From contig CM097885.1 in the NCBI GenBank assembly GCA_044892525.1, positions 22,880,001 through 22,940,000 on the forward strand: 60,000 bases of DNA, in the 5' to 3' direction. Positions 18,199 to 41,438 of this stretch are shown here, one piece after another. Under the pieces are notes generated by a model. It did not search any database and was not told the DNA's origin. It saw only the letters and a program-made list of their open reading frames with translations. Numbering within the stretch: the first letter of the stretch is position 1; each line of letters opens with the position of its first letter. A program made the translations under genes and the position numbers. The DNA comes from Schmidtea polychroa. Taxonomy: Eukaryota.

Positions 18199-19901
<1,703 letters not shown>

Positions 19902-20080
19902 GACTCCACTGTTATTGTTGTATTGTGTGAGCACACACTCGTTATAATAATTAGCAATATGAATAGAGTTTTCATGGTGTATCAAATCAAAACCTTTCTT
20001 TTACATTTATAGTCTATCAACCAATCAAAATCATCCGGTATTAGTATAAATAAAACATCATATTTTAAATTATTGTAAAA

Positions 20081-20601
20081 ATGTCTCAATTTATGGAAAA
20101 TCTTTTAAGAGAACTCGTCAACAGGAATATTATGGAAAGCCTATGTTTCCTGGTCGATCGGACCGAAAAGATTATAGAAGGTAATCACATTGATTATGAC
20201 GATGTGATCAATTCTGATTGTCTCGAAACCAAAAAATTCTATTTTAATAGAATTTTTAACTGTCTATGCGACGATCAGATGAAGTGGACCCGAATACTAG
20301 TAGGGTTCGCTTATATGAAAATAATAATCCAAAGAAGTCTATGGGACTCAGAGCACTATTATCAGTGGTCTCAAGAAGTAATACTTTTATAATTTATATT
20401 TTATTAATATTTATTTTCTAGATAATCAAGTCAAAGTTTCAACCATGGATTGAAGCCAATGGCGGATGGGGAGTACTCAATCAACTCGCCAGAAATGCAA
20501 AAGAAATAGACGATCAGAAAAGAAAATTTAAAAACTATGTAAAACTTGCAACAGGTGTTGCTATTTTGTATATTTTAACCAGATTTTTAAATAAAAATTA
20601 A
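20081..20601 (+). CDS. Bcl-2 family protein, 2 exons (20081-20377, 20422-20601), 158 aa
   Basis: BH1-like FNCLCDDQMKWTRILVGFAY; after a 44-bp phase-0 GT-AG intron, BH2 PWIEANGGW and a C-terminal TM anchor LATGVAILYILTRFL preceded by basic residues. Confidence 0.88.
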
Positions 20602-20684
20602 TATAGTTATTTTTGTTTGATTTTTAAATAAATTTTTAAATAACATTTTAAATAAATTTACAAACACTAATTAACTAAGATTTA

Positions 20685-21056
20685 TTAATTAACACATTCG
20701 CAGTCGTCATCTCCACATTTCATTATATTTTCAACGACATGATCAATACAATCATTCGTAATATTATCTTTAGATTCATCTTTAGGTTCCTCTATAGGTT
20801 CCTCTATAGGTTCATAGATTTCCTCTTGAGTTTCTTCCTCATCAATTTCTTGAGTTTCTTCCTCATCATCAAATCCTGTATCTTGACTCTCAACTAACCA
20901 GCCGATATTTAAGGCATTTGTAATAGATAATATATCCTCCATTTTCACACCAGATATTTCTGCTAACTTTTCCAACAAAAAGTTGATTAAAAATTCTAAA
21001 TAATAAATAATTCGGTAATTAATTAATTAATCATGTTAACCTTTTTCTACAGTCAT
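20685..21056 (-). CDS. Small acidic protein, 2 exons (21056-21041, 20995-20685), 108 aa
   Basis: ATG exon MTVEK joined in frame through a 45-bp GT-AG intron to EFLINFLLEKLAEISG...; Glu-rich repeats (DEEETQE, IEEP). Confidence 0.65.
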
Positions 21057-21191
21057 TTTCATCACTTTAAAACTAAATTATAAGTTTGTTTATAGATTTT
21101 CTTTGTTAAATTTGCATGTCATTTGCATTTATGTTGCAATTAATAAAGAGAAAAAAAACAAATCTGACTAATACATTTATTAAATATAACA

Positions 21192-21602
21192 TTAAAATAT
21201 TTGTGAAAGTCTAGCAGACATAATTTTCCAAATAGGAGAATATACATCATTATTATCAACTTTATATCCCTGGATTGCAATTGTTATATACCAATTTTCA
21301 TTTTCTTTGAAAGCGATTTCATCAAAGGAATCATAAAATCTTGCATATTTATTGTTGAACCATGCATGTTGATTACACGATAGATTCGAATCTATCCGTT
21401 TAAAAACATCATCAATAGTTTTGACATCAATCATTGAAAGCGTGCCGGATAAGAATTCAAATTTAGTTGGAATTAGCTTGACTGGTGCAACCAATTTCAT
21501 ATTGATTTCTTCTTTCAAAAAATACATTTTGTAGTTGTGGAACATTTGAACTGGTTGTACCATTTCTTTAGGTTTTTCGGTGCTTGAAATTTTCTTGGTC
21601 AT
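21192..21602 (-). CDS. Putative OB-fold ssDNA-binding protein (136 aa)
   Basis: Beta-rich; C-terminal WYITIAIQGYKV....YSPIWKIMSAR resembles the end of viral gp2.5-like SSBs; TATA and CCAAT boxes upstream. Function is inference. Confidence 0.5.
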   Translation of the reverse strand: MTKKISSTEKPKEMVQPVQMFHNYKMYFLKEEINMKLVAPVKLIPTKFEFLSGTLSMIDVKTIDDVFKRIDSNLSCNQHAWFNNKYARFYDSFDEIAFKENENWYITIAIQGYKVDNNDVYSPIWKIMSARLSQIF

Positions 21603-21962
21603 CGTGAATAATGAATAAATTTAAATGTTACAGGGTTTTTATACCTTTGACTCATGCCTATCAACCAATCAGATTATAGCATGTCTTTGTTTAAATTGCA
21701 TTCAAAATGCATTGATGTTGCATTGTCACATGTTCTATTTACAGATTTATTATTAATGTTTAAATTATTACATGTTTTGATATATGTACAGATTTATTAT
21801 TAATATGTTTCATTATTATTAATGTTTTTACTATTATTACTATTCATATTTCTATTACTATTATTATTATTATTACTATTATTATTATTACTATTATTAT
21901 TTCAAATATAAAACACAATAAAACACAATAAAAAAGATAAAACACAATAAAAAATACATTTA

Positions 21963-22376
21963 TTAATAACCCAAATCTACAATCTTGGAGTAGTGAAACC
22001 TTCTCAGAGTTTTCACTAACTCCCATTCGACATATCGCCGATATCGATCGGCGCAACATGAGCATCCGATGATGCACTGGTACTCTGGCTCCATTTGTTT
22101 GATGGTTCTGTTAATCTTTATATCCCACAGAAACTGGTGAAATACATCCATGATTCGAATTTGAGTCGCATAGAATATCAGATCTGGAATGATCTCAGGT
22201 TCGCGATCCTTGATAATTTCAATAATTTGAGGATAATAATATTTTATCCTTTTTATCATAACTTCTAAATATTTCTCTAAAATAATAAATAGTAAATAAT
22301 GTGAAAAAAAAATTTTAAATTTACCGGAATCGTCGATATCTTTCATGAGGGTTGCAGAGCTTGGTAATTTGTACAT
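21963..22376 (-). CDS. Hypothetical protein with CxxxCxCC motif, probable 48-bp intron (22277-22324)
   Basis: ATG at 22376; an in-frame AT-rich GTAAAT...TTTTAG segment looks intronic; three CCAAT boxes at ~22430-22466. Confidence 0.55.
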   Translation of the reverse strand: MYKLPSSATLMKDIDDSGKFKIFFSHYLLFIILEKYLEVMIKRIKYYYPQIIEIIKDREPEIIPDLIFYATQIRIMDVFHQFLWDIKINRTIKQMEPEYQCIIGCSCCADRYRRYVEWELVKTLRRFHYSKIVDLGY

Positions 22377-22450
22377 AGTGTTGAAAAAATGAATTCTAAA
22401 CAAAAAACCGTTTGTTTAAATCAATCAATAACCAATTAGAAATTAACCAA

Positions 22451-22888
22451 TTAGAAATCGACCAATGAAATTATCTCATTTCGAACATTGTCAACAAATT
22501 CTCTATACTCCAAATTTCTCAACCCCAACATGACAACCTTTCCACTAGCAAACACGTTGACACATATAGGGTTATATTTTAATAGTCTTAGTGCCGGAAA
22601 CAATTCCGGTTCAAACATACAATCACATTTTTTCGACATGTTATATAGATTGATACTATGTCCCATATCCATAGTAACGGTAATTGATTGGATTTTAATA
22701 TTATTTATTCGATATTGTAATTTATTAATATCCAAAGGTTTCTTACATCCCATGATTCTGCATTTACCAGTCTTGAAAAATATTATCGGATATTTCCCAC
22801 TTCTATCGATAATTTGCTGGGGTTTCCCTGGTGGGAACCTCATATTCGATACATCAAAATTTCCTCGATAATTTATATTTGCTAACAT
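22451..22888 (-). CDS. TATA-binding-protein (TBP)-like protein, 145 aa
   Basis: Two-repeat TBP core: LANINY / IIFFKTGKCRIMG and IQSITV...INL / FEPELFPAL / VNVFASGKVVMLG (cf. TBP YEPELFPGL...LIFVSGKVVLTG). Confidence 0.88.
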   Translation of the reverse strand: MLANINYRGNFDVSNMRFPPGKPQQIIDRSGKYPIIFFKTGKCRIMGCKKPLDINKLQYRINNIKIQSITVTMDMGHSINLYNMSKKCDCMFEPELFPALRLLKYNPICVNVFASGKVVMLGLRNLEYREFVDNVRNEIISLVDF

Positions 22889-22987
22889 TATTAAATCATT
22901 TATGAAAATTAGTCTTTATATACAAATTGAGCACGAGTTCATTAAATCATCGAATATAAACAAATACACATTTATAAAATATTTGAA

Positions 22988-23614
22988 ATGGAATTAAGAA
23001 ATGATGCTGTATACCAAATCGTTGGTCCGAGTGGTAGTGGAAAAACATTATTTGTTTGTAAATTACTAAAATCCAATTTATTCAAATCAAAATTCAACAG
23101 GATTTATTGGCATAGGGGTGCTGATGAAGAACATGGATTAACTCAATCAAGTTTCTGTAAATTAAAAAACATGAAAATAGTAAAGGGATTCGATAAAAAC
23201 TGGTCCAGCCGATTAAAGAAAGGCGATGTCATTATTATCGATGATTTGTATCAAGAAGCTAATAAAGAAAAAGATTTTAATAATTTATTTACAAAGATTA
23301 GCAGACATGTCGGTGTAACAGTTATTTTCATAACTCAAAATCTATTTCATCAAGGTGGGGCACATCGAACACGTAATTTAAATGTACAATATTTAGTCAT
23401 TTTCAAGAATCCTAGAGATGCAACAGTGATTGATTTTCTTGCACGTCAAGCATACCCTAACAATCGTAATTTTCTTATCAGTGCATTTCAAGATGCTACA
23501 AAAATACCTCATGGATATATATTTCTTGATTTCACACAACAATGTCCCGATGATTTACGTGTAAAAACAGATATTTTCAACCCAAAAGGTGCCATGGTTT
23601 ATAAACAAAGTTGA
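22988..23614 (+). CDS. Genome-packaging ATPase (A32/FtsK-HerA type)
   Basis: Walker A GPSGSGKT, Walker B IIIDD, SRH..VTVIFITQ, R-x-N and FKNPRD motifs typical of Polinton ATPases. Confidence 0.95.
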   Translation: MELRNDAVYQIVGPSGSGKTLFVCKLLKSNLFKSKFNRIYWHRGADEEHGLTQSSFCKLKNMKIVKGFDKNWSSRLKKGDVIIIDDLYQEANKEKDFNNLFTKISRHVGVTVIFITQNLFHQGGAHRTRNLNVQYLVIFKNPRDATVIDFLARQAYPNNRNFLISAFQDATKIPHGYIFLDFTQQCPDDLRVKTDIFNPKGAMVYKQS

Positions 23615-23632
23615 AAACCTCTATGAATAATA

Positions 23633-24166
23633 ATGTTTCTAAAAGCAAGGGTGAAAAATATTAGGAAATTAAGAAAAGGTATTAGAAAGACTATTAAAGT
23701 TCCAAAGGTTCCACCAACAACTAGTTATACACCATCTAAAAAACTTGTAACTGAAAATTTCTCTGCAATGAATCTTATTTCGAAAAATCCTAAACCTAAA
23801 CGTAAAACCCGTAAAACCCGTAAAACCGGTAAAAAAGTAGTTAAAAATCATCGCAGTTTTCCATTTTTTAATGCATTGTTAAAGGCTCCGAGTATGAAAA
23901 GAATGAATATATTGCAATCATTCCCAAATTTTGTTGTCGATGATTTACTCAATATTATACTTAAAGTAGTCAAAGGCAAAATTAAAATCAGTAAATCAAA
24001 AAAGCATTTATTGAGCAAACATAGGAAACCTTTATTATCTTTAGTAAATAATAAAAATCGTAAGCAAATGAGGAAAATTATATATAAACAACAAGGTGGA
24101 TTTATTGGTGCCTTGATACCTCTGGCATTATCATTATTAGGTGGAGTTGTAGGAAATCAATCATAA
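23633..24166 (+). CDS. Basic core protein with adenovirus pX(Mu)-like C-terminus
   Basis: Very K/R-rich; ends QQGG|FIGALIPLALSLLGGVVG, resembling the adenovirus pX GG|[FI]LP.LIP.IAAAIG tail. Confidence 0.75.
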   Translation: MFLKARVKNIRKLRKGIRKTIKVPKVPPTTSYTPSKKLVTENFSAMNLISKNPKPKRKTRKTRKTGKKVVKNHRSFPFFNALLKAPSMKRMNILQSFPNFVVDDLLNIILKVVKGKIKISKSKKHLLSKHRKPLLSLVNNKNRKQMRKIIYKQQGGFIGALIPLALSLLGGVVGNQS

Positions 24167-24169
24167 ACA

Positions 24170-24397
24170 ATGGGTGCTAATCCTTCATTGCCCGACATTA
24201 AATTTAATTTTAAATCTTCTTGTTGTAATGGAGAAGATTTGGACGAACCCAGAAGACGAAGCCGGTTTCGGTGGAGTGGCAAAATTAAACAAAAGAGTTC
24301 CGAATTCGAAAAAAGAAACCCAGAAGTGGTTATCAGATCAGCTTGCGTACAGTTTGAACAAACCAATGCGGAAAAGATTTCCAACAAGAGCGTATAA
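24170..24397 (+). CDS. Putative small myristoylated protein overlapping the integrase 5' end
   Basis: Starts 3 nt after the pX-like stop in context ACAATGG; MGxxxS motif, CC pair and basic patch. Confidence 0.4.
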   Translation: MGANPSLPDIKFNFKSSCCNGEDLDEPRRRSRFRWSGKIKQKSSEFEKRNPEVVIRSACVQFEQTNAEKISNKSV

Positions 24398-24615
24398 AAC
24401 ATTTGGTATTGACGATTTATGGCAAATGGATTTGATGGAGATGATACCATATTCGAAAATTAACAATGGGAATAAATATATTTTAACATGTATTAATGTA
24501 TACAGCAGGTTTGCACGAGCAATACCAGTCAAGGCAAAATCTGCAGAAGAAATGTCCAAGGCAATTAATATTTTATTTAAAGATGGACATCCTAATAATT
24601 TGCAAACAGATTTAG

Positions 24616-24704
<89 letters not shown>

Positions 24705-25334
24705 TTAGGTAAAGAATTCTACAATAGCAAAGTTAAGCAAATCCTCGATAAACTGAAAATAAATCACTACTCGGTACATTCTCAATACAAAGCTGCCCAT
24801 GTTGAAAGATTTAATCGAACATTGAGAGATAGATTAAAGAAATTGTTCGTGCATCAAGGTAATAAAAAATGGGTAAATGCTTTACCGAAAATAATAACAA
24901 GTTATAATCATTCATCACATCGAGGACTGAATGGATTGAGACCGGTTGATATTACATCAAAAACACCATTATCTAAAAAATCTGTAAAAATTGCAAAACC
25001 TAAATATAAAGTCGGTGACCATGTTAGAATTAGTAAAATTAGTGCATCACCATTTATTAAAAATTTTGATACAAATTGGAGTGATGAAGTCTTTGTAATT
25101 TCAAAAATAAATACTAAACAGAATCCTGTAATGTATGTCATCAAAGACAATGATAATAATATTGTACAGGGGAAATTTTATGAGCAGGAATTACAAGTCA
25201 TTCCTCCCCCAAAAGTATTTAGAATTCAAAAAATATTGAAAACTAAAAAGGTCGGTAAGGATAAACAATACTATATCAAATGGCACGGTTATCAAAACCC
25301 GTCATGGATATCGTCAAAAGACCTAGTAAAATGA
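24228..25334 (+). CDS. int: Retroviral-type (rve) integrase with C-terminal chromodomain; 2 exons (24228-24615, 24709-25334), 337 aa
   Basis: WQMD, LQTD-LG-KEF (after removal of a 93-bp intron) and VERFNRT DDE motifs; YKVGDHVRI, NWSDEVF, GKFYEQEL; chromodomain RIQKIL...YYIKWHGY..PSWI. Confidence 0.95.
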
Positions 25335-26335
25335 ATTTTTATATTATTTTACCTAGCAATAGCTGTCCACTTATTCATCCAGATAATAAAGCCAGCAAAT
25401 TCAGGGTCAATCTTCAAAATCCGATATATTTGGATAATAGCTGGGAAGTTGCTCTGTTGGATTTTACATTTGTATACCAAGCCTTTCCATTTTATAGTAA
25501 GGCTAAAATTGGATACAAAAAGAATGAGTGGCAGGATAGATTATTGTCTATGATCATTGATAATGCAGATGATGAAGTTCGGTTGTCTAACTCAACTGAT
25601 CCAGCTGTGAAAATGTATATTAACCATTCATATATAGTAGTTGAATGTAAACATTATCCTTTTACTGTAAAATTTGATAGTTTGGAAATGGCAAAACGAT
25701 TGGAATTAAAAACCCAAAGTCATAAAGTTCTTTCCGATAAATTCACTATGCTACGACCGGGATATTCCAAAACTGTACAGCGATTTGAACCAATTTTATT
25801 TACAGTTTCATATCCGGGTATAACGTCTGGTACATTTGAGTTCAAAGATAATTTATACATTTCGAAATTGGATGAATTACAGACATATTTAAAACAAAGT
25901 GGTTTATTTAAATCATTGGAAATATCAGACAGATTCAAATTCAGTTTGAATCCCGAATTTACTGAAATTACTTTTGATGCAAATCTAATAAAAACATTAG
26001 GATTATCAAAAGCAACATATGCTCAAGATGATCAAGGTACCCTAGCTCCGAAAATAATTAAACTTCACCAACAAATGTTCATCTATAGTAATATTGTTGA
26101 TCCTGTAATTGTTGGCGATTCTTTGGTCCCACTCCTGAAATCTGTTTGGATTGAAAAATATGAACATGATGAAGTAGTCAATATAAATATCGATAATCCC
26201 ATGTATTTACCTGTGTCAACCTCATGTATAAACAATATAGAAATAAATATACGTGATGATTCTGGTAAATTAATCGCATTTCCAAAAGATTCAAAAACTC
26301 ATTTAACATTACATTTTCGTAAAGTAGATGGCTAA
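25331..26335 (+). CDS. Minor capsid protein (penton)
   Basis: N-terminal FYIILPSNS...N....F...L..P..L...WEVAL and C-terminal IYSNIV....VGDS..PLL...Y.PV....I..IEI.IRDD.G...LHF motifs; ATGA overlap with the integrase stop. Confidence 0.9.
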   Translation: MNFYIILPSNSCPLIHPDNKASKFRVNLQNPIYLDNSWEVALLDFTFVYQAFPFYSKAKIGYKKNEWQDRLLSMIIDNADDEVRLSNSTDPAVKMYINHSYIVVECKHYPFTVKFDSLEMAKRLELKTQSHKVLSDKFTMLRPGYSKTVQRFEPILFTVSYPGITSGTFEFKDNLYISKLDELQTYLKQSGLFKSLEISDRFKFSLNPEFTEITFDANLIKTLGLSKATYAQDDQGTLAPKIIKLHQQMFIYSNIVDPVIVGDSLVPLLKSVWIEKYEHDEVVNINIDNPMYLPVSTSCINNIEINIRDDSGKLIAFPKDSKTHLTLHFRKVDG

Positions 26336-26693
26336 TTCGGATATTATAAGTATGTATAGTGGTAGCCAATCTGGCGGTGAATTACCATATTTTATTGGTA
26401 AACAGTACGGATCAGGATGGTTGAGAACAATTGGTAGATTTGCACTTCCTATTCTTAAACGTATTGGTAGTTTTGGTATGAAAACTGCTAAAGATGTTAT
26501 TATGAATGAACAGAAAATATTACCATCTCTAAAATCAAATGCTTTAGCAGAATTAGGGAAAGTTTTACCCGGGGTTGCAGGTATGTTTCAAAAACCAGCT
26601 CCAGCTCCAGCTCATGCTCCAAAACGTAAAAGACATGGAATATCACGTATAAACAAACGAATGAAAGGCCATGGAACTATATTTGCAAAATGA
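26328..26693 (+). CDS. Conserved Polinton virion core/cement protein (PW-like)
   Basis: QSGG.LPYF.G.QYGSG followed by an amphipathic basic helix (WLRTIGRFALPILKRIG); lies immediately upstream of the MCP. Confidence 0.7.
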   Translation: MANSDIISMYSGSQSGGELPYFIGKQYGSGWLRTIGRFALPILKRIGSFGMKTAKDVIMNEQKILPSLKSNALAELGKVLPGVAGMFQKPAPAPAHAPKRKRHGISRINKRMKGHGTIFAK

Positions 26694-27913
26694 TTTGTGG
26701 TAAATCTGAATTATGTATATTTGATAGACCGTCGCCCCAGGCTGTAATAGAATTTGGGGCGTTTGAGGAAGTTTTTCCAATGAATTCAATTACTGATAGT
26801 AGAAATGATATAGAGTTTTATATTAATGGTTCGCAAACTGAATATTTAGATTTGAACGATACTTTATTGACTGTTCAGATCAAGGTTATAGATAAAGATA
26901 AAAAAGCTTTGGGTGATGCTGCTGATGCAATACCGAACAATTTCATGTTTCATACTCTTTTTAAAGATGCTGTGTTGGGATTTAATAATATCAAGATTGA
27001 AGGTGGTAATAATACATTCATTCACAAGGCTTTGATAGAAACTATTTTAAATTACAATTCCGATACTAAAAATACATGTCTTACTCCAATGGGATATGCT
27101 GCAACCGACGATGAAAGAAAAAAGTGGATTAAAGGCTCAAAAACATTCACCATGTGTTCATCGTTACAACTCGATTTTATGGATCAACCGAAATATTTGC
27201 TTCCAGGAGTTAATGTCCACATTCGATTGAAAAGATCCGATTCTGCACTAACTCTTACTAGTGCTACAGGTGCACCAATATGTCAATTAGTTGATGCAAA
27301 ATTATTGGTGAGAAGAGTTCGAGTAGACCCCTCAGTATTAGCTGGTCATCAATTGGGTCTTAATTCAAAACATGCAATTTATCCATTAAAAACAAAGGAA
27401 ATTGTACAATTTGCTATTGCTAAAGGTGCTTCATCATTCTATAAAGAACAAATATTTGGTGACAGAAGAATGCCTAATTTTATTCTGATAACATTTCAAA
27501 GTGAAGCACAATATAATGGATCATATACTGCGTCCAGCTCAATTTTCAAAAACTTCGGTGTTACATCATTGACTTTGTCGAAAAATACTGATTATAGAGA
27601 AACATATATTCAAGATTTCGAGAATGACAATTACTGCGCGACATATATGCAGAGTATTGTTAGAAATCTCGGTTATTTAGATAAAAATTTGAATTGCGGA
27701 ATAACACTAGAAGAATTTAAAAGCAAATACCCATTTTTTACATTTGTTTTAGCCCCTGATTTTGATTTAAATCAAAGTCAATTACCTCAAAATGGAAATT
27801 TACGACTGGATATAAAGTTTGCAAAAGCTATTACTGAACCAGTACATGTTATAATATATGGAGTATTTGAAAATGAAGTTCAAATTACTGCAAATAGAAC
27901 AGTGTTGGTATAA
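26690..27913 (+). CDS. Major capsid protein (double jelly-roll)
   Basis: C.KSEL..F start, IEF.I.G...YLDL..T.L, Q.KYL..GV...I.L.R, G.LRL..KF...L......I.YG.F...V.I...R motifs of Polinton MCPs. Confidence 0.93.
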   Translation: MICGKSELCIFDRPSPQAVIEFGAFEEVFPMNSITDSRNDIEFYINGSQTEYLDLNDTLLTVQIKVIDKDKKALGDAADAIPNNFMFHTLFKDAVLGFNNIKIEGGNNTFIHKALIETILNYNSDTKNTCLTPMGYAATDDERKKWIKGSKTFTMCSSLQLDFMDQPKYLLPGVNVHIRLKRSDSALTLTSATGAPICQLVDAKLLVRRVRVDPSVLAGHQLGLNSKHAIYPLKTKEIVQFAIAKGASSFYKEQIFGDRRMPNFILITFQSEAQYNGSYTASSSIFKNFGVTSLTLSKNTDYRETYIQDFENDNYCATYMQSIVRNLGYLDKNLNCGITLEEFKSKYPFFTFVLAPDFDLNQSQLPQNGNLRLDIKFAKAITEPVHVIIYGVFENEVQITANRTVLV

Positions 27914-28325
27914 ATGTATACAGAAACACAAAAAGTTATCATGGAGTAAGTTGTTTTTTATACTCTGGATTTATTTAAATAGTTCTGTTCAGGTCAATAA
28001 AATCGGAAAACAGATATTGGGAAATGAATTTGTTGGAGTTTTTCCTCTTGATAAAATTCCATATTTGAGCAATAATCAAGCAATAATCGTCAATACTCAA
28101 TCGTCTCATCTTGGTGGAGAACATTGGATAGCTATATATGTGAAACCTGGTAATATATTCGTGTTCGATCCTATGGGTTTCTATTACCCAGCTTTGTTGA
28201 TATCAAAACTACAAACAATGGGAAAACCTATTGTGTATAATAAAACTATGTTTCAAAATCCTTTGACCCAAACATGCGGTCAACATTGTTTAGCTTGGTT
28301 ATTGTACAAAAAATTTGATGTTTAA
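27914..28325 (+). CDS. Adenain-type cysteine protease; 2 exons (27914-27945, 27983-28325), 124 aa
   Basis: F.GVFP.D, IVNT.....GEHW, FDP.G, Q.....TCGQHC catalytic motifs; a 37-bp GTAAGT...AG intron restores the MDSVQV start. Confidence 0.92.
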
Positions 28326-28414
28326 AGAAAAATGTTTAATAAATTTGATGTTTAATAAATGTATCCTTTCCTTTGTTGTTGTGTTATTATTATTAATATT
28401 ATTATTATTATTAA

Positions 28415-28460
<46 letters not shown>

Positions 28461-28821
28461 ATTATTAATATTATTATTATTGTGAAAAATATTATTATTT
28501 TTAATTAATTTTATTATTATTCTAATAAATATTATTATTTGTAACATAAAGACTGCCTTTGCATGAGGCATGCACAGTGCAAGTTAACAAAGGCATGACT
28601 AACAAAGGCAGTCACATGTAATTCTGACTGATTTACATTACATACATGCATGCGTGTGATTGGTTGAGAGAGTAAAATATTCAATGTATATGTGTGTGTG
28701 TCTATATTCTCATTGGCTGGGACAGGAAAATATTCATTCTCTTTATAAACATTGACAAATCTAAAATTTGTCACAATTATTTCAAATTTTTCAAATTTCG
28801 ATTTCAATTTTAAAAATCTAA

Positions 28822-29496
28822 ATGGCTAACAATAATAAAAATGGAATTCTAAGAAATCTTTTGACGACAATGGGTAATTTATTTTATTTTATTTTATTAT
28901 ATTTTATTTTATTATTATTTTAGAACCATTCGATTGGTACGATGTAACGGAAGATGACTCGATATTAACAGTGGATAAGATCTTCGGTAAATTTATTATT
29001 ATAATTTTTAATAAATTATTTTTTTTTCAATTCAGAAAATGCTTCAAATAGCGACGATGATGTCGTCTTTATCGGGGAAAGTAATGCTCCTAATAAGATC
29101 TTTGGTAAATTTATTATTATTTTTTTTATTAAATTATTTTTTTTTCAATTCAGAAAATGTTTACAATAGCGACGATGATGTCGTCTTTATTGGGCAAACT
29201 GATGCCCCTAATTATGCCCCTAATTATGCCCCAGTTCTCAAAGAAAAAAGTAAATTTTATTATTATTTCTATTAAATTAATTTTCATTTCAGAAAATGTT
29301 TTAAATGTTGATATTGACGAAGAAGAAATTAATGTCCTCGCATCGGATGATGGTGAAATCTGTGAGAATGATGGGCAAATCTCATCGGATGATGATCAAA
29401 TCTCAGAGAATGATGGGCAAATCTCATCGGATGATGATCAAATCTCAGAGAATGATGGGCAAATCTCTGAGAATGATTCCGACATGGAATCAAAAT
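28822..29496 (+). CDS. Five small exons (28822-28873, 28924-28986, 29036-29104, 29154-29249, 29293-29496) encoding an acidic leader with SIM-like motifs; probably the 5' part of polB
   Basis: Four 43-50 bp phase-1 GT-AG introns keep one open frame; duplicated exons encode SDDDVVFIG; ends at a phase-1 donor GTAAGA at 29497. Confidence 0.7.
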
Positions 29497-30244
29497 GTAA
29501 GAAATATTTATTTTTATATATATATTTTGTTTTTTATTTATATGTTAAATTTGTAATAACTTATTTAAATATTTTGATAAAAAACTTTTTTAAATATTTT
29601 AATAAAAATTATGATGAAACTTCTGAAGAAAATGATTTTATGATTTATAATGAAAATATACCGAAAAATTATGAAGAAAAATGATTATATGTTTTATAAA
29701 GAAAATGATGAAAATATGACGAAAATTATGATGAAGAAAATTATGAATTTATGATGAAGAAAATAGGATGAAAATCAATTATGATGAAAATGATTTACAA
29801 CCAAAATTATGATGAAAATGATTTATGATGATATAATGAAAATGAATTATGATGAAGATATGACGAAAATTATGATGAAAATGATTTATGATGATATAAT
29901 GAAACTTCTGAAGAAAACTATTTTATGATGAAAATTATTTATACCGAAAATTATGAATTTATGATGAAAATGATTTATGACCAAAATTATGATGTAAATG
30001 ATTATACTAAGTTTCTGAAAGTTATTATTATCAAAATATTTAAAAAGTAAAAAAAAAAATCAAATTTTATTTTATTAAATTTCTCGGGCCTCCTGGCCAA
30101 GAAGGGGAGATCGATTCTCACCCTTATGTAATCTGAAGCTTTTATTTGGATAAACAATAGATGCTGGAGTGTAATACTCCTACATTAAACGTTCTGTAAG
30201 AGTTCTGTCAGGTTTCGGTATTAGTTGTTGATGTTAGGAATTGT

Positions 30245-30821
30245 TAGGAGAGGCTTGTTAAGGCTTCTGTCAGGTTCAGTATTGTTAAGGCTTCTGTCAG
30301 GTTCAGTATTGTTAAGGCTTCTGTCAGGTTTAGTATTGTTAGGCTTCTGTCAGGTTCAGTATTGTTAGGGCTTCTGTCAGGTTTAGTATTGTTAGGCTTC
30401 TGTCAGGATCAGTAGGAGAGGCTTGTTAGGGCTTCTGTCAGGATCAGTAGGAGAGGTTTGTTAAGGCTTCTGTCAGGTTCAGTAGGAGAGGCCTGTTAAG
30501 GCTTCTGTCAGGTTCGGTAGGAGAGGCTTGTTAAGGCTTCTGTCAGGTTCAGTATTGTTAAGGCTTCTGTCAGGTTCAGTATTGTTAAGGCTTTAGTATT
30601 GTTAGGCTTCTGTCAGGTTCAGTATTGTTAAGGCTTCTGTCAGGTTTAGTATTGTTAAGGCTTCTGTCAGGTTTAGTATTGTTAAGGCTTCTGTCAGGTT
30701 CAGTAGGAGAGGCTTGTTAAGGCTTCTGTCAGGTTCAGTAGGAGAGGCTTGTTAAGGCTTCTGTCAGGTTCAGTAGGAGAGGCTTGTTAGGGCTTCTGTC
30801 AGGTTCAGTAGGAGAGGCTTC
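30245..30821. repeat. Tandem minisatellite of 26/27/35-bp units (core GGCTTCTGTCAGGTTCAGTA)
   Basis: Many direct copies visible, with outliers at ~30200 and ~31150-31215. Confidence 0.9.
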
Positions 30822-31619
30822 TATGTGGTTAGGAGCACTAAAAGTTAATTAAGTAGGGCGGAGTTGGAAGACTCCATTTGTGGTCAAATATTATACATTA
30901 TATTATATTAAGTATTAGAAAGATAGGTCAAAGGAAGAGGTATTATTAAAGATAGGTGGTTATAATGGATATACAACAAACTAAGAACTAAAAAAATTGA
31001 AAAAAAGGAATTATCAGTGAGGCGGAGCCGCTACAGGGGCTCCTACATTGACCTACACTGATAATATACACGGATAATATGTCAGATAGTTTAGTTGCAA
31101 TCTGAGTCCTAGGTGGGACGTGGGAGGTTTGTCGGGTGATGTTTTAGTATTGTTGCGGCTTCGGTCAGGTTCTGTAGTAGCTGTTGGGAGAGGCTTGTTA
31201 AGGCTTCTGTCAGGTTTATTCATCAAAGGATGTGGTTGGATTCATTCAGGTTATATTTGCTGTAGATTATAAGTAAATATATTGTATATAGATATAGGGT
31301 TTTCCCATTCCGGTCAGTGCTATGAATGTTTTAAGAAACAGAATAATTCAGATAATCATATCAATTTATTTCTAAATGTAGTTTAATATCAATTAAAGTA
31401 AATATAGGAAGGATGTTGTATAGATTTATAGTTAGAGAGATAATGCAATTTTAAATTAAGATTAGTTAATATTCATAAGAGGAGTATGATAAGTATATAT
31501 AGTCAAATTAAAATTGACTCAAAAATCAAAGTTAATTTAAATATTAGGAATATAAATTAGCGAATATAAATGAGGGTATTTAATATATATACATATATAT
31601 TGTAACTTAGTTAAATTAT

Positions 31620-32725
31620 TTAGATTGAGATATTTGAAAATCTCAATTTCCAAAATAACTAGTAATTTAAACAATTGTCAATTAAATTCGAAATGTATTT
31701 TATTACCAATTTAATTCAAAAAGTATTTTATTATAAAATTATTTAATTAAATATAGATAGGATTATGTATACAATAAAATTTTAAATATAGTTAGTATTC
31801 AAAAGATGAATATATATATAGTTAACCAAAATCCAAGTTAATTCATACCTTAAGAGATTAAGGTATAGATATAGTCAAATTAATTAAATTTTAATGAATA
31901 TAATTTTATAATAGGAAATTATAAATAAGGGTAAGTTTTATATCTAGTATATATAAAGATAACGATATTTGAAAATTTCAAATTCCAGGATAATTAGTAA
32001 TTTAAACAAATATCAATTAATTCAATATATAGATATAGTTAAATTAATTATAATTAAGCTTTTAAGGAATATAGTTTTATAATGGTGATATGAAGGTTAG
32101 ATATAAATAAGGGTATATATATATATATATATATATGAGAAATTAAATATAGATAGGGGTACATATAATTTATAAAAAATTTAAACAAAATTTAAACAAG
32201 TGTATTTTATTACCTATTTAATTCAAAAAGTATTTTATTATAAAATTTAATTAAATATAGATAGGATAATGTATACAATAAATTTTAAATATAGTTAGTA
32301 TTCAAAAGATGAATATATATAGTTAAATTAAAATTAAACCAAAATCCAAGTTAATTCAAACCTTAAGAGATTAAAGTATAGATATAGTCAAATTAATTAA
32401 ATTTTAATGAATATAATTTTATAATAGGAAATTATAGATAAGGGTATTTTTTATATCTAGTATATAATGATAGTAAAATTATTTAAATTGAGATATTTGA
32501 AAATTTCAAATTCCAAGATAATTAGTAATTTAAACAAATATCAATTAATTCAATTTATAGATATAGTTAAATTAATTATAATTAAGCTTTTAAAGAATAT
32601 AGTTTTATAATGGTGATATGAAGGTTAGATATAAATAAAGGGTATATATACATACATACATATATACATACATACACATATATATATATATAAATATGAG
32701 AAATTAAATATAAATAAGGGTATAT
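31620..32725. repeat. Imperfect ~0.5 kb AT-rich tandem duplication
   Basis: Blocks such as TTTAATTCAAAAAGTATTTTATTATAAAATT (~31710, ~32217) and GATATTTGAAAAT recur. Confidence 0.75.
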
Positions 32726-32768
32726 ATAAAAAATGTTGAAGATATTTCACCGTGATACATAGCTGAGC

Positions 32769-34532
32769 TTATAAATCCAAGTTGCAGTCTGCATCATAGG
32801 ACGAATCGGAAGTAGAATCTGAATTGGAGATATTATCGGAGTCTGAATCACAGGGAGGATCGGAAATGGAATCGGAGCTAGAGATGTTAAGAGGGTCTGA
32901 ATCTGTGTATGTGCATTCAGTGATGTAGTTTGGAGCATAGACACGAACGGAAGCATAATTTCGATCATACTCAGAAATTGAGTCAGAATCTGGGTATGAA
33001 TCAGTATCAGAGCTAGACTCGGAATCTGGATCAGAATCAGAGAATGACTCTGAATCTGGATATGAATCAGGTTGTTTCTCAATATCTGTCATCTTCTTTT
33101 CAATAATACTGTCATCAATAAGATTTATATAGTGGGCATTCAGTGTTGTAGAGTGGTTTTGAATTTGGGCTGTTGGTAGATAAGTATTCATGATAAATAG
33201 ATTATCTTCTTTGTTGGCAGTTTTAGTAGGCTGTTTTTCAGTATCCGGTTTTGTTTTAGTAATGCTGTCGTCCATAATATTGACATTATGGGCATTCAGT
33301 GATGTATAGTTTTTTGAATTTTCGGCTGTTGGTGGATCAGTGTTCATGATAAATAGATTATCTTCTTCGTTTGTATTATTAGGTTCATTGCTCGGTAATT
33401 CGGTATTAGATCTAGAATTGTCATCTGTTTGGACTTCAACATCGTACCTAGCAGATAATAAATCGAAATGCATATTATCTAGAGTATTAATAGGTTTTAT
33501 TGGTATAGGACTAGAGTAGTGGGGTCTAGGTAGGTTAATATAGTTTGAGGTTTTTGGTTTCCAAATTTTGACGGTCGGTTTTGGTATAGAATAAGGTGGA
33601 TTTATTTGAGTTATTGTATTATTCTTAGGTCTCCTGCCAACATTTTCCGGGAGCCGGCCTCGGGCCGGCGAGCTGCGTATATTATTCTTTTCGTCCTCCG
33701 ACGGAGGACGAAAAAAATTTTCAGCATGGTCATCAGATCTGAAATTTGGTGAAAATTTAAACAAATTTTCCCTTAAATTTTCTTTAAATATTTTAATTTT
33801 TCTATTTTTGATTTTGTTAATTTTTCTTTTTCTCTTTTTATAATTAAATTTCACGTTATTAGGCTTTTCATTATTCATTTTTACATTATTAGGTTCTACA
33901 ATATTAAGTTTTACATTATTATTAAGTTTAGTATTATTAAGTTTTAAATTATTAAATTTTACATTATTAAAATCATTTATGAAAAAATCATTATAATATT
34001 TAATGTTAAGATTATTATTAAGAAAGGATATATATTTGATACTTTGAGAGTCTTTTTTATAATTTTTATCAAAGGGTGTTTTTTTAATTTTATCTTTATA
34101 AGAAATATTATTAGCAGTATTATTTTTGAAAACATTTTTATAATTAGATAGGTAATTTTGATTATTAGTTACTTTTAGCAGCCATATTTCTATGGCCGCT
34201 TCGAACGCGTTTAGGAAATCCACGTGCTGTTCATGGACCAGGTCTCCTATGATGAAACTTCCAAAGACCATTTTATCGGCATATTTGAAAGTGTTTAAAC
34301 TGATGTTCCTAAAGTTGGTGCCGATACTTTCCCATATTGCGATTCGAAGATCCTGTGACATATCAATGTTTCCTGCAAAATAGTTAAATAATTGATAAGC
34401 AAGATAGAACTCATTGATTTCTGCCCCAGTGCTAGTGAATGTTATATGGAGTAATTCTACTAAGCACTGAGGACTTTTACAGAAAATTTTCAGCATGGTC
34501 AAATTATGGTTATAAATCCTTGTAGTTTGCAA
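32769..34532 (-). CDS. Hypothetical 587-aa protein: globular N-terminal ~125 aa, basic NLS-like region, Ser/Asp-rich tail
   Basis: A long stop-free ORF in very AT-rich DNA; KKRKRK, duplicated EDNLFIMNT..PTA motif and SD repeats; no family recognised. Confidence 0.7.
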   Translation of the reverse strand: MQTTRIYNHNLTMLKIFCKSPQCLVELLHITFTSTGAEINEFYLAYQLFNYFAGNIDMSQDLRIAIWESIGTNFRNISLNTFKYADKMVFGSFIIGDLVHEQHVDFLNAFEAAIEIWLLKVTNNQNYLSNYKNVFKNNTANNISYKDKIKKTPFDKNYKKDSQSIKYISFLNNNLNIKYYNDFFINDFNNVKFNNLKLNNTKLNNNVKLNIVEPNNVKMNNEKPNNVKFNYKKRKRKINKIKNRKIKIFKENLRENLFKFSPNFRSDDHAENFFRPPSEDEKNNIRSSPARGRLPENVGRRPKNNTITQINPPYSIPKPTVKIWKPKTSNYINLPRPHYSSPIPIKPINTLDNMHFDLLSARYDVEVQTDDNSRSNTELPSNEPNNTNEEDNLFIMNTDPPTAENSKNYTSLNAHNVNIMDDSITKTKPDTEKQPTKTANKEDNLFIMNTYLPTAQIQNHSTTLNAHYINLIDDSIIEKKMTDIEKQPDSYPDSESFSDSDPDSESSSDTDSYPDSDSISEYDRNYASVRVYAPNYITECTYTDSDPLNISSSDSISDPPCDSDSDNISNSDSTSDSSYDADCNLDL

Positions 34533-34570
34533 TGTGCATCTACAATAGTTAAAATAATAATAATAATAAT

Positions 34571-35025
<455 letters not shown>

Positions 35026-35032
35026 TTTCTTT

Positions 35033-35077
<45 letters not shown>

Positions 35078-35280
35078 TATAAATAATAATCAGACCCCGT
35101 CTACTAAAATCTCTCTAATATTCTATCGAATATATTAACCTATTTTCTATAATGATTTATCATCATTTGTTATTTAATTCAAATGAACTATATAACAAAT
35201 GATGATAAATCCTTGTAGAAGTAACAATTAGTTTTCTATATAGAAAAAAACAATAAAATTTTAATTTTATTATTTAACAG

Positions 35281-38200
35281 GTATACTATACCCGAACTAT
35301 TGTCAAACATCAATTGGACATAGTGATAAATGTCATAGAACAATGACAAAATATTACCGAAAAAAGTTTAATTCGGTCAACTTTTTTATATGCCCCAAAT
35401 GTGTAACGAGCGAAAAAATAAAATATAGGGAATTTTTTAATAAACATCATAATCACTTAGGGCAATTTTCGATATCAAAAAATGTTTTATTTAAAAAAAT
35501 AAATAAAAAATTAAATAAAAAAAAAAAATTAGAAAATAATTTACAAAAAAACTTACAAAAAAATTTAGAAAATAATTTACAAAAAAATTTGCAAAAAAAT
35601 ATTAAAAAAAATAAAAAAAATATTATTAAAGATTCAAATATTAAAAAAGATGCTATTAAAAAAGATACTATAAATATTATTAAAAAAGATATTATAAATA
35701 TTAAAAAAGATTCTATTAAAAGACCTGCTGGTTTAATTAAAAATTGCATTCCTAATAAATTATCGCGACCTGAAGTGATAGTCATCAGCAAAGATGAATG
35801 TGTAGCTTCAACATCGTTTACACACCAAGCACCCATTACACAACACGCACCCATTACACAACAAGAAGTGATAGTCATCAATGATGAATGTGTAGCTTCA
35901 ACGTCTTTGAACATATGCCAAATAGGCGGCTCTTTATTTGAACCTATGGTAGAATCCGATTTGAACGGATCGCGTAAAACTTTAAGATTTGATATTAGAA
36001 ATCAAAACTTAGTAAAAATAGCCCTAACATCAAAAATTGAAGATAGATTAATACAGGAAATAGAAAAGATGGGCAATGTAAAAATTCAATTCACAATTTT
36101 AATTAAATTTGAAAAAGATGGGGAGATCCGGGATAATTATTTTTCAAACAATGCTCAAGTTTTTACATCAAACTTTATAAACGAGGGGGTGAGCAAATTA
36201 AATGAAAAGATTGAGCAATTCACCTATTTAGGAAGCGGGTGGCGAGTAATGAATATTTTAGAAATAGATTTTATTTTAACGAAATACGCACCCGTCAGTA
36301 GATTATCCGGACATAGCTATATAAAAACCCCATCAGCATTAAAATTAAAACATGCAATAATTAATGTAAAAAACAACGACCATAAGTGCTTCTTGTATAG
36401 CATTCTTGCACTTTTAAAAAGAGAAGAAATAGGTCGTAATCACCAAAGAGCCGCCAAATATATAGAATTTTTACCTCTATTAAATTATGACGAAGACACT
36501 GATTGCCCGATGAGGCTATGCAACATTCCCAAATTTGAAAGAAAAAATAGAGATTTAAACTTGAGCATAAACGTTCTGTCTTATAATCCAGCCAGTTCTG
36601 ATTTAGATATTTCTGAGGATTATGTAGCTCACCACCCTCATCTTAATATAGTACATCGCTCCAAGGTTATAGACGGTAGACCAATTTATTTATTACTTTT
36701 GAGTAATAAAGATAAATATCATTATACAGCCGTGACAGACTTGGACAAATTAATGAATTGTCATGAAAATGAAAATGTAAATGTTCAAATAAGGTGTAAC
36801 TGGTGCCCACATTGTTTAAATGGCTTTAGATATAAGAATGCTTTCGATCAGCATGTTGCTCTATGCTGTAAAAATCAGACTGGCACAACTTTGTATACAC
36901 TTCCTAAAAATAAAGATTTATTATTCACAGATTACGCGAAAACAGTTACACCTCCCTTCGTAATTTATGCCGATTTTGAATCGGTTTTACCAGAACATGA
37001 AACATATCATCAAATACATTTACCCATATCAGCAGGTCTTTTATTAATTAATAATTATACACACACTAAATTTTATTATTATTTTTTTGGACCTAATTGT
37101 ATTTTGGATTTTTTGAGGAAAGTGGAGGAAATTGCTGTCACAATTGTCCTGCCATATTATGATCTTGAAGGTCGTAAAGGTATGTCTACTTTGTCTTTTG
37201 CTCAGGAGCGTGCCTTTCGATCTTCCACTATTTGTTATTTGTGTAAAAAATCTATTATTAATCCTGTGAGAGATCATTGCCATTTTACAGGTAGATATGT
37301 CGGAGCGGCATGTAGGAAATGCAATGTCTCTCGCAGGATTAATAAATTGTTACCTGTTGTCTTTCATAATTTACGAGGCTATGACCTCCACCATATTTTA
37401 AAACATGGTCTCAGTGATTTTCCCCTTTGGGAACTTAATATTATACCTACCTCTACAGAAAAATTTATATCTTTAATTGCATATATTAACAAATTGCCTG
37501 TTCGTTTTATTGACAGCATGCAATTTGTTAATTGTTCTTTAGCAAAAGCTGTGAAAACCTTAACTACTTTTCCTTTGACTTCGTCTGTCTTTCAAGGGTC
37601 GATGATTCACTCTAAAGGTATCTTTCCATATAATTTCGCCACTTCTTTAGATGTTCTTGAATCGACTTTAGAATTACCTCCTATTTGGTCTGATGTTACG
37701 GAAGATCAGTACGCTGAGGCTCAACTAATTTGGAGTCAGCATAACTGTAATAATTTGTTAGATTATATGTTAATCTACCTAAAATTGGACGTATACCTCC
37801 TCGCAGATTATTTTCAGCAATTCCGCGGTAAGGCAATTGCTTACAATGGTCTGGATCCTCTTAATTTCTACGGGATTCCCGGTATGTCATGGGCCTCAGC
37901 GCTTATGACATTAACGGAACCAATAGAACTTCTGCAGGACATGGAAATGTATAATTTCTATGAGGGAGGTATCCGGGGTGGGTTAACATTTGTTAACAAA
38001 CATTACACGGCTACTTCAGATGATACAGAATTATTGTACATTGATATAAATAATCTGTATGGTTGGGCTCTTAGCCAAAATCTTCCGTATGGTGATTTTT
38101 CTTGGGTGAATAATAACTTGAATGATGTTTTACTTGAATGTATGAACACGGATATTGATAACCTTCCATATGGGTATACTATGGAGGTCGATATCGATAT

Positions 38201-39338
38201 TCCGGAATGTGTGCATGACTTTTTGAATGATTTTCCGCTTGCGCCGGAAAAGTTGTGCCCGCCTAATTCAAAAGTTGAGAAGCTTATGCTTACGCATTGG
38301 CCAAAGAGGAACTATGTTCTTCATTGGAGGCTTCTCAAATTGTATATAGAATTAGGTGCGGTTGTTGTAAATATTCATAGGTGTATAAAGTTTAAACAAG
38401 GACCTATCTTTAAATCCTACATAGACACCAACACCACTTTACGATCTCAGTCTACTAGTGAGATATATAGGGACTTGTTTAAATTGTATAATAACTCTCT
38501 TTACGGTAAATCGGTTGAAAATTTGAAAAAAAGAAGGAATTTGAGGTTGTGTAATTCATCCGAAAATATGATAGTATACTCCTCAAAGCCGACTTTCAGA
38601 AAGTCCATAAGAATCGATAACGATCTGATTGCGGCACATTTGGAAAAAGATGTGATTTGTTTAGACAGACCTAGCTACATTGGTCAAACAGTACTAGATC
38701 TGTCTAAACTGCGGATGTACCAGCTCCAATATATTGATTTGGAGAAGTACAGACGCCAATATAAATGTATCATAAATATTATTGCCGGTGATACCGACAG
38801 TTTCTTTTTGGAAATAAAAAATTTAAAATTAACAACTTTATTACCTCAGATGATCTCTGATAATTTATTGGATACATCAAATTACGATCCAACCCACCCC
38901 TTGTATAGTAGGAACCTTGACTCGGTCATCGGGAAGTTTAAAGATGAGAGCAAGGGATTAGGGTATTCTGAATGGGTTTTCTTACGCCCTAAATGTTATA
39001 GTCTTTTAGGTAGTAAGGAAACGGTAAAAGCAAAAGGGGTTAAATTACCAGGGACATCAATAAATCACGAATCATATCTAAATTGCTTTCATTCAAATCA
39101 GGTGATTTCTGTACCGCAGACTAGAATAGGTACTAGAAATCACCAACTTTTTACTTTTAAAAATTCGAAAATTGCCCTAAGTAATAATGATGATAAGCGC
39201 GCGTGGCTAGGAAAAAACTTAAGTTACGCATTTGGGCACTATTTAGGAGTTGACGAATTAAGCGAATATGATGAGGAATTCGGTCCAGCTCCAAGTCCCA
39301 GTTTTGACGACAGCGAATGGGACGAAGATCAAATTTAA
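35281..39338 (+). CDS. polB: Protein-primed family B DNA polymerase (main exon; first in-exon ATG 35343) with terminal-protein/vOTU-like region and EndoVII-like insertion
   Basis: GSGW, DHKCF...HY, ExoI YADFES, CxxC..DHCHFTG.Y.GAAC..CN, ExoII FHNLRGYD, motif A YIDINNLYGWA, motif B KLYNNSLYGK, motif C GDTDS, KCY, KAKGV, DDKR. Confidence 0.97.
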
Positions 39339-39659
39339 ATAGAAAAAACTTTATATTTTTGATTCATAAAAACTTGTATAGTGATTTCATGATTTATAAA
39401 AAATTGTATAGAAACTTTTATTTAAAAACTTGTACAAAAACCTGTATATTGTATAAAACTTGTATTTATATATACATATTCAATAAAATTTTTAATCAGA
39501 TTTTTTAAGTATTTGGTGTTTTATTATAATTTTTTTATATTTAATGGTGATTTTTATATAGTCTGCAGTGAGCATGCAGCTATATGTTTTATATAGTCTG
39601 CAGTGGGCATGCAGCTATATCAATGAAATAATAATAATAATAATATTAATAATATTAAT

Positions 39660-39741
<82 letters not shown>

Positions 39742-39749
39742 TTAATAAT

Positions 39750-39801
<52 letters not shown>

Positions 39802-39879
39802 CTTTAAACAGGTTGCAAAGGGTACTAGTCATGCTTATTATTGTTATACATTTGATGGTTACATTTTGAAAGCTCTATT

Positions 39880-40311
39880 TTGATTTTTAATAAATCAATA
39901 TGTGTTTGTCCGAATACAGCCAAGTTGATGGATATTTTATATATTCTCGATAAACCAAAATGGTCAAAGCATCCAGGAAAAAGAATATCTCAAAGATTGG
40001 AGAATTTAGAAAACAGTTATGAACTAACATTTGAATATATACAAAATATAAAAATTAAATTGATTGATCATATTGAGGTTTTCAATAACTCTATTACTGA
40101 AAATAAAAAGAATATGAAGATTATTGATAAGAAGCATGATTATTTGTTAAAAAAGATTGAATTATTATTAAGAGAAATTCAAACAATCAAAGGATCAATA
40201 GAATATCTAAAAATCAATTCAACGTTACCAATTTCTAACAATAATGCTGCGAATAGAAGTGCATCAATATTTAGTTTACCTTTGTTAATTTTACATTATT
40301 TTATTGTTTAA
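39880..40311 (+). pseudogene. 5'-truncated TIR copy of the coiled-coil/GPI-type gene
   Basis: Protein identical to 19475-19975 from FNKS onward but lacks the signal peptide; the ORF opens on TTG. Confidence 0.7.
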
Positions 40312-40436
40312 ATAAATGTATGTTTTGTTGATTTGTTGAGCGTGACCAGTACCCTTGTGAGCATTACCCATAGGGGGACAAAATATTTTGTCGGATAGAC
40401 TCAGAGTATATAGACTCGGTGTATATAGATTAATAC

Positions 40437-40493
<57 letters not shown>

Positions 40494-41438
40494 GATATAT
40501 GGCTCATTCGAAAGGTCTTGGATTGAGCTTTAAAATGAGCTATCGATTATTAATTTTCGTTGGCGGGAACTTTGAAAAAATTAAAAATAAAATAATAATA
40601 TTTTTAAAAATAATAATAAAAATAATAATATTTTTTAAAAATAATAATATGACCTTGATGAGTCATCGCGATGACTCATATGACCTTGGGAATGACCTTG
40701 GATGAGTCATGTGACCTTGAAAATGACCTTGATGAGTCATAGGATGACTCAGATGACCTTGAAAATGACCTTGAAAATTTTGATGAGTCATCGGATGAGT
40801 CATATGACCTTGAGAATGACCTTGATGAGTCATAAGATGAGTCATATGACCTTGAAAAAAATTTCTCAAGGTCAAATGAGTCATACTATGAGTCATATGA
40901 CCTTGAAAATGACTTTGATGAGTCATACTATGAGTCATGTGACCTTGAAAATGCCCTTGATGAGTCATATTATGAGTCATATGGCCTTGAAAAAAATTTT
41001 TCAAGGTCAAATGAGTCATACTATGAGTCATACGACCTTGAAAATGACCTTGATGAGTCATACCATGAGTCATATGACCTTGAAAATGACCTTGATGAGA
41101 CATGGTCTTTGTTTAAATGACCTTGAGAAAATTTTTTTGACCTTGATGAGTCATATTGTGAGTCATATGACCTTGAAAATGACCTTGATGAGTCATCGGA
41201 TGAGTCATGGTCTTTGTTTAAATGACCTTGAAAAATTTTATGAGTCATAGGATGACTCATGGTCTTTGTTTCAATGACCTTGATGAGTCATATGTCTTTG
41301 TTTAAATTTGACCTTGAAAAAAAATGTACTTTTAGACTTAGAATATTTTTGAAAATCTTACCGACGGGGGGGAGGGGGGAGGGGGGGGGGGTACTGTGCT
41401 AGCGGTGCCCTGTGCCAGCGGTGCCCAATCCATCTACT
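39885..41438 (-). repeat. Right terminal inverted repeat (1554 bp)
   Basis: Reverse complement of 18199-19901. Confidence 0.95.

Follow-up and report, generated by a model that had tools for sequence, protein, structure and literature searches.

A Bcl-2-like gene with a predicted intron in an intact planarian Polinton, probably acquired by way of mRNA from the host gene bcl2-1

Homologues of Bcl2 and IAP have been reported in adintoviruses, and Fig. S2 of that study labels Bcl2 three times (Starrett et al. 2021, PMC8502044). The presence of Bcl2 in this group is already in print; the portions of the text and supplement of PMC8502044 covered here mention neither a planarian element nor a donor gene or an intron in Bcl2. 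In intact vertebrate Mavericks introns were not seen, according to the parts of the study consulted (Barreat and Katzourakis 2021, PMC8097293), which makes intronlessness a described trait of Mavericks rather than a defining one, and the Polinton-like elements of dinoflagellates are described as carrying introner insertions that are for the most part no older than the genomic ones (PMC11957031). In planarians, BCL2-like and BIR domains have been described in Burro retrotransposons (PMC6431247), and RNAi against bcl2-1 of Schmidtea mediterranea is reported to lead to systemic cell death and lysis (PMC4993586, PMC6970515).

The window, a stretch of 60,000 nucleotides from Schmidtea polychroa, contains an intact element of this class, and its features together with those of the Bcl-2-like gene are as follows.

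18199..41438, no strand: Polinton/adintovirus-type element of 23,240 bp with AGTAG ends, flanked on both sides by the 6-bp target duplication CATATT
18199..19901, + strand: left terminal inverted repeat, partner at 39885-41438, arms 99-100% complementary
20021..20025, + strand: CCAAT box, conserved upstream of the gene in A1, A2, A3, C and D and in family B
20046..20053, + strand: TATA box TATAAATA, 36 nt ahead of the ATG, conserved in A1, A2, A3, C and D
20081..20377, + strand: exon 1 of the Bcl-2 homologue, 99 codons, through BH1 (KWTR) into helix 6
20378..20421, + strand: predicted spliceosomal intron of 44 nt with GT-AG borders, in phase 0
20422..20601, + strand: exon 2, 59 codons and a stop, with the BH2 motif WIEANGGW and a predicted tail anchor
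20590..20595, + strand: AATAAA, candidate poly(A) signal
22988..23614, + strand: A32-type packaging ATPase, Pox_A32 E 3.6e-7, dN/dS 0.08
24228..25334, + strand: rve integrase with chromodomain, E 1.2e-5, below the Pfam cut-off, containing a predicted intron at 24617-24709
26690..27913, + strand: putative double-jelly-roll major capsid protein, feature score 0.98 (a lead), dN/dS 0.11
27858..28325, + strand: adenovirus-type C5 protease, E 4.6e-6, dN/dS 0.25
35343..39338, + strand: putative protein-primed family B DNA polymerase, 1331 aa

The A32 ATPase and the C5 protease score above the Pfam cut-off. The capsid candidate gave no Pfam or PDB sequence match, and PF21738 is found on 15-24% of the members of its cluster. 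For the polymerase candidate, which we take to be PolB from its motifs, Endonuclease_7 was the sole Pfam match. Further reading frames were noted inside the element: a TBP-like gene at 22451-22888 (145 aa, Pfam TBP E 1.6e-15, dN/dS 0.16); a 166-aa ORF at 19475-19975 with a hydrophobic N-terminus and a coiled-coil-like body (dN/dS 0.35), which lies mostly within the inverted repeat and whose 3' part recurs at the right end (39928-40311); a 575-aa low-complexity ORF at 32769-34496 without Pfam match; and an acidic multi-exon gene at 28822-29500, with GT-AG introns of 49-50 nt at 28874-28923, 28987-29035 and 29105-29153 and repeated DDVVFIG motifs that resemble SUMO-interacting motifs. A tandem array of 27/35-nt repeats occupies 30230-30860, and elsewhere in the window, at 11412-12866, lies a host MFS transporter ORF of 484 aa.

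According to the preliminary description the open reading frame of the Bcl-2-like gene ends after a BH1-like motif, and indeed the frame that starts with the ATG at 20081 meets a stop at 20392, after 103 codons, so that the unspliced product has 103 aa. The same description proposed that removal of a 44-bp GT-AG intron adds BH2 and a tail to give 158 aa. This is borne out by the sequence, with splicing as a prediction: the intron (GTAATA...TTTCTAG) follows 297 nt, i.e. 99 codons, in phase 0, and the translated exons yield a predicted product of 99 + 59 = 158 aa in which exon 2 contributes the BH2 motif WIEANGGW and a predicted C-terminal tail anchor (best 17-residue hydropathy 1.62, versus 1.39 for host bcl2-1 and 2.05 for a Bcl-xL-like protein). 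Its other readings, KWTR in place of NWGR in BH1, which we located in exon 1, and a TATA box at 20046 and a CCAAT box at 20021 upstream, agree with the letters as well. Both boxes precede the ATG in all seven intron-bearing copies examined (5 subfamilies), whereas of 5000 stretches of 120 nt drawn at random from the window 28 contain a CCAAT-then-TATA pair; upstream of the family B Bcl-2 gene (see below) no TATA box was found. The comparison thus confirms a 158-codon Bcl-2-like gene, split by a predicted intron, inside an intact Polinton.

To place the intron, all 36 GT-AG combinations compatible with an open exon 1 were scored against a profile built from 116 Bcl-2-like proteins of the databases, which had themselves been found with a profile containing these exons; the proposed pair came out on top with 59.7 bits (next best 53.1, unspliced 30.0). 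Related subfamilies were collected by a Pfam scan of the 781-Mb genome, from which 20 older copies were retrieved, 18 of them with Polinton genes within 10 kb (one weakly). A predicted intron is present at the same codon in subfamilies A2, A3, C, D and E and absent from host bcl2-1 and from family B. Six intron sequences from A1-A3 measure 42, 44, 45, 45, 48 and 51 nt, all begin with GT and end with TAG, and those of the different subfamilies are unrelated in sequence. Among 18 older copies examined, from subfamilies C, D and E, 15 have GT...AG at that codon around unrelated inner sequence, while GT is lost in one and two are incomplete; subfamily E has the weakest Polinton context, with no Polinton genes within 30 kb of its locus L158. 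If the intron is left in, every subfamily either stops before BH2 or shifts frame. Genome-wide, the intron-containing junction pattern has 881 exact matches and the intron-free pattern none, and in a MAFFT alignment the intron peptide of a copy that reads through forms a clean insertion of 15 columns relative to 68 other rows. On the protein level, residues 10-99 of exon 1 align without gaps to residues 37-126 of planarian bcl2-1 and exon 2 to residues 127-182, so that the exons abut exactly there.

Substitution rates point to purifying selection on both exons when subfamilies are compared: between A1, A2 and A3 the dN/dS over both exons is 0.09, 0.21 and 0.20, with exon 1 dS near saturation, and for exon 2 alone it is 0.13, 0.39 and 0.31, all intervals lying below 1. 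Comparison thus argues strongly for splicing at 20377/20422, given that diverged subfamilies have unrelated introns at one and the same codon, that selection acts on both exons and that the exons abut on bcl2-1. If there were no intron, the gene would be the 103-aa ORF or a broken remnant. Such a view would suit the databases, where only unspliced gene calls of 103-108 aa are found (P0003 cluster) and protein searches with exon 1 returned the unspliced call and nothing longer, but it has to contend with the selection on exon 2, with an insert whose length varies in and out of frame across subfamilies while GT and AG persist, and with exons that meet precisely on bcl2-1, and we regard it as highly improbable.

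Contigs from four sequencing runs speak neither for nor against splicing: none of the 15 rows listed contains the 20377-20422 joint, and the intron letters occur in two presumed-RNA runs, where they could stem from DNA or from unspliced or antisense RNA. Two contigs that start at 20422 were rejected as a sign of splicing, as a variant bubble explains them equally well. One run contig has an untemplated A-tail after 20609; the same run has six such tails, several of them at A-/T-rich sites.

The integrase has a second predicted intron (24617-24709), 93 nt long, with GT, an ATT repeat, TTTTAG and AG|GT at both ends; it is in frame and free of stops, is present in an A3 copy and is absent from both family B copies examined.

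Family membership was assessed by profile and by structure. A Pfam Bcl-2 (PF00452) search, proposed along with the original observation, matched the window's two exons separately and below the cut-off (exon 1: positions 12-66, E 0.01, 16.8 bits; exon 2: positions 86-100, E 0.34, 11.9 bits), but two relatives pass the cut-off of 31.4 bits, namely the sister copy L079, read through its intron, with 34.6 bits and the family B gene with 32.7 bits. The best PDB sequence matches, both weak, were Bfl-1/A1 for exon 1 and Bcl-xL for exon 2. A structure model of L079, with the intron peptide inside and from an input alignment rich in Bcl-2 proteins, reached a pLDDT of 86.6 and a pTM of 0.63. When it was compared with 48,161 chains, the first 22 rows were all Bcl-2 family members (Z 10.6-7.8, residues 2-115), the best having Z 10.6 and an rmsd of 4.9 over 107 aligned residues and Bcl-xL Z 10.5 and 3.0 over 104, Z values near 10 falling within the range of generic helical bundles. 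Foldseek gave weak matches headed by Bcl-xL and viral Bcl-2 proteins, with a best E of 0.006 and no match at E <= 0.001. The model supports a Bcl-2 fold for helices 1-6 only, since the intron peptide displaces BH2 in it.

Canonical pro-survival Bcl-2 proteins have NWGR in BH1, and most have Gly where the Polinton protein has Thr. The Polinton BH1 (KWTR) departs from NWGR, and the Thr together with the low identity to bcl2-1 raises the prospect that binding partners may have changed. Some poxvirus Bcl-2-like proteins do other jobs, so a Bcl-2 fold serving immune signalling, autophagy or pro-death release has to be weighed. The missing NWGR, the fast divergence from bcl2-1 and the poxvirus proteins DPV022 and F1L among the top structural rows, tied with Bcl-xL, would fit such a role. 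Yet the host pro-survival orthologue lacks NWGR too, BH2 and tail stay colinear with bcl2-1, and the helix-2 stretch reads LxxxVD, not the LxxxGD of pro-death BH3 motifs. We consider a different job improbable.

The nearest named relative of the Polinton gene, on our comparisons, is the host bcl2-1 orthologue, a single-copy gene without Polinton neighbours (G000:C1:268544056) that is 89% identical to C9WPR4/ACW83059.1, which the supplementary table of PMC4993586 lists as S. mediterranea bcl2-1. The Polinton protein shares 24% identity with bcl2-1 in exon 1 and 29% in exon 2. As BH1 is RWSR in host bcl2-1 and KWSQ in another close, unnamed relative, KWTR appears to be largely inherited and the absence of NWGR to predate the capture. 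In quick trees without bootstrap (42 rows, then 26 of these without long branches) all Polinton Bcl-2 copies and bcl2-1 fall into one clade (SH-aLRT 89 and 98), within which the intron-bearing Polinton copies form a clade of their own (95 and 97). This bcl2-1 clade also includes four unnamed proteins (P0013, P0014, P0021 and P0027), which leaves room for a lost or unsampled paralogue as donor; with P0013 as query, a viral contig scan found no locus. Seven near-identical host-like Bcl-2 copies with NWGR are clustered on C4 (L061-L067, G000:C4:89.9-90.8 Mb). E1B-19K appears as no more than a 0.86 lead; the link to adenovirus is one of analogy, and the gene appears to trace to a planarian gene.

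The Bcl-2 domain of Burro forms a long branch outside the bcl2-1 clade and is likely a separate capture. A Burro-like, Gag-like polyprotein of ~3,000 aa with a Bcl-2 domain lies at G000:C1:6356233-6365313 (L095-L096), and there are dozens of such matches.

Intron positions were compared with those of host Bcl-2 genes, as had also been suggested at the outset. In host bcl2-1 an intron of about 3 kb follows GGW (residue 142), and 5 of 8 host-like Bcl-2 loci have an intron there, whereas all Polinton copies examined read straight through; the Polinton intron lies 16 codons upstream of the host site. The lack of the host intron and the new one upstream suggest that the gene was likely captured from bcl2-1 mRNA and later gained one intron, which is the simplest history. 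Sliding of the intron from the host position, 48 nt away, was judged unlikely.

A second Polinton family, B (loci G000:C1:15386000-15426000 and C2:50130000-50170000; PolB 58% and capsid 78% identical), encodes an intronless Bcl-2 of 144 aa (L083 1405-1836) in the orientation opposite to the TBP cluster. At 45-48% identity to host bcl2-1 this gene is nearer to the host gene than the intron-bearing copies are, and the family B integrase is intronless too. Its grouping with the intron-bearing clade has a support of only 73, and one capture or two both fit.

The Polinton carrying the window's gene belongs to a young and abundant family with hundreds of copies: all 150 scored exon 1 matches are at least 96% identical and 149 are free of stops. 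From the 150 A1 copies, 40 were chosen for variant analysis, mostly from the more diverged end; 34 of them are intact, 5 broken and 1 incomplete, and GT and AG are kept in 39/39 that align fully. Variants common to at least 3 copies are mostly silent (16 versus 7 replacing), whereas rare variants comprise 13 silent and 26 replacing changes plus 3 stops. Rare variants that mostly replace residues or create stops are as expected for neutral decay after insertion, so the gene seems to be selected during replication of the element and not in resident copies, which favours a benefit to the element over one to the host.

Eight of eight close inverted pairs of Bcl-2 genes examined (L219-L234) prove to be rearrangements in which an element has two left arms; a breakpoint (window 37186/22952) is shared by two of them, and three are near-perfect fold-backs or deletions without PolB. 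Retention of Bcl-2 in these copies was rejected as functional evidence, as the gene adjoins the element end.

From the presence of the gene the preliminary description had deduced that the element has a true infectious or lytic phase and manipulates host cell death. The second part stands in a weaker form, since the protein is likely anti-apoptotic judging by its sequence, but the first does not follow, because the Burro retrotransposons of planarians carry Bcl-2 domains as well, within Burro-like polyproteins. The selection seen on the putative genes for capsid and packaging argues by itself for particles and is silent on lysis. A classic viral Bcl-2 acting in a productive, cell-killing cycle like that of adenovirus E1B-19K would be in keeping with the open frames of the putative genes for capsid, ATPase and protease and with the purifying selection on them (dN/dS 0.11, 0.08 and 0.25), an argument of the kind used for reinfection by vertebrate Mavericks in the parts of PMC8097293 consulted, and with a structural-module marker beside the capsid gene that has 697 exact matches versus 881 for the Bcl-2 junction. 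None of this, however, shows lysis or links Bcl-2 to such a phase, Burro-like retrotransposons of the same genome also contain Bcl-2 domains, and hundreds of near-identical integrated copies equally fit intragenomic spread. We think such a cycle possible but doubtful.

The reading that we find reasonably probable is that of a conserved Polinton Bcl-2, predicted to be spliced, which was captured as bcl2-1 mRNA, gained its intron later, and acts as a tail-anchored pro-survival protein in cells where the element is active. The CCAAT/TATA promoter would drive a host Pol II transcript, from which the host spliceosome would excise the 44-nt intron. The 158-aa protein would anchor via its tail in the mitochondrial outer membrane and restrain Bak/Bax-type effectors, as bcl2-1 is thought to do. 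A cell that excises, copies or integrates linear element DNA could then survive long enough to transmit copies or particles, a role for which no lytic cycle would be necessary. Both the localisation and the anti-apoptotic function are what we infer from the protein sequence.

The benefit might also fall to the host, with copies expressed in stem or differentiating cells adding death resistance in the manner of the Burro1 IAP. The latter is reported, at second hand, to safeguard planarian stem cells (PMC13465017), and Polintons are described as desilenced during normal planarian differentiation (PMC8532177); the host-type promoter and intron and about 880 copies versus one host gene would also be in line with a symbiosis. 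It is difficult to reconcile with the rare variants of integrated copies, mostly replacing or nonsense (26 + 3 versus 13), with the piRNA silencing of planarian Polintons (PMC8532177), and with bcl2-1 RNAi alone lysing S. mediterranea, a species other than the one analysed here. We judge this benefit unlikely, and we are just as sceptical of its extended form, in which an endogenous DNA virus lineage took bcl2-1, gained introns in accessory as well as core genes and now protects host stem cells beside Burro1 through hundreds of expressed copies; were it true, planarians would harbour a second, independent anti-apoptotic symbiosis besides Burro1.

New is a traceable, essential donor gene together with an intron gain, in a class whose vertebrate members are described as lacking introns; in the open-access literature searched we found neither a Bcl-2 gene of a planarian Polinton nor its intron described, while Repbase, subscription papers or supplements may hold one. 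For the proposed pro-survival role the system offers a testable case of what a Polinton accessory gene does, as RNAi of the donor is lethal, the host is amenable to RNAi, and the family combines a young age with a very high copy number. The path of gene capture would be visible in full, from an mRNA-type copy and the loss of the host intron to the gain of a new one, with an intronless sister family alongside, and would include one of the rare clear cases in which a DNA virus-like element of an animal gained an intron. That two unrelated classes of mobile element in one genome contain Bcl-2 domains may point to apoptosis as a main filter for transposons in planarian cells.

Among known systems, the Bcl2 accessory genes of adintoviruses and Mavericks (PMC8502044) belong to the same class of element as the window's Polinton, whose gene differs from them in having a traceable donor and a conserved intron. 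With S. mediterranea bcl2-1 the Polinton protein shares gap-free colinearity over 90 + 56 residues, a non-NWGR BH1, BH2 and a tail anchor; unlike bcl2-1, to which it is 24-29% identical, it has a shorter N-terminus, exists in about 880 copies on a mobile element, and lacks the GGW intron while having a new one 16 codons upstream. Burro is likewise a planarian mobile element with anti-apoptotic domains (BCL2-like and BIR), but it is an LTR retroelement with the Bcl-2 domain inside a polyprotein. The viral proteins E1B-19K, BHRF1, A179L, F1L and DPV022, several of which appear in the top structural rows, also have a Bcl-2 fold and are short and tail-anchored, whereas the Polinton gene apparently originated independently from a flatworm gene. 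Like intact vertebrate Mavericks (PMC8097293), the planarian element has terminal inverted repeats, a 6-bp duplication and core genes under purifying selection; unlike them, it has predicted introns in its Bcl-2 gene, its integrase and a third gene (20378-20421, 24617-24709 and 28874-29153).
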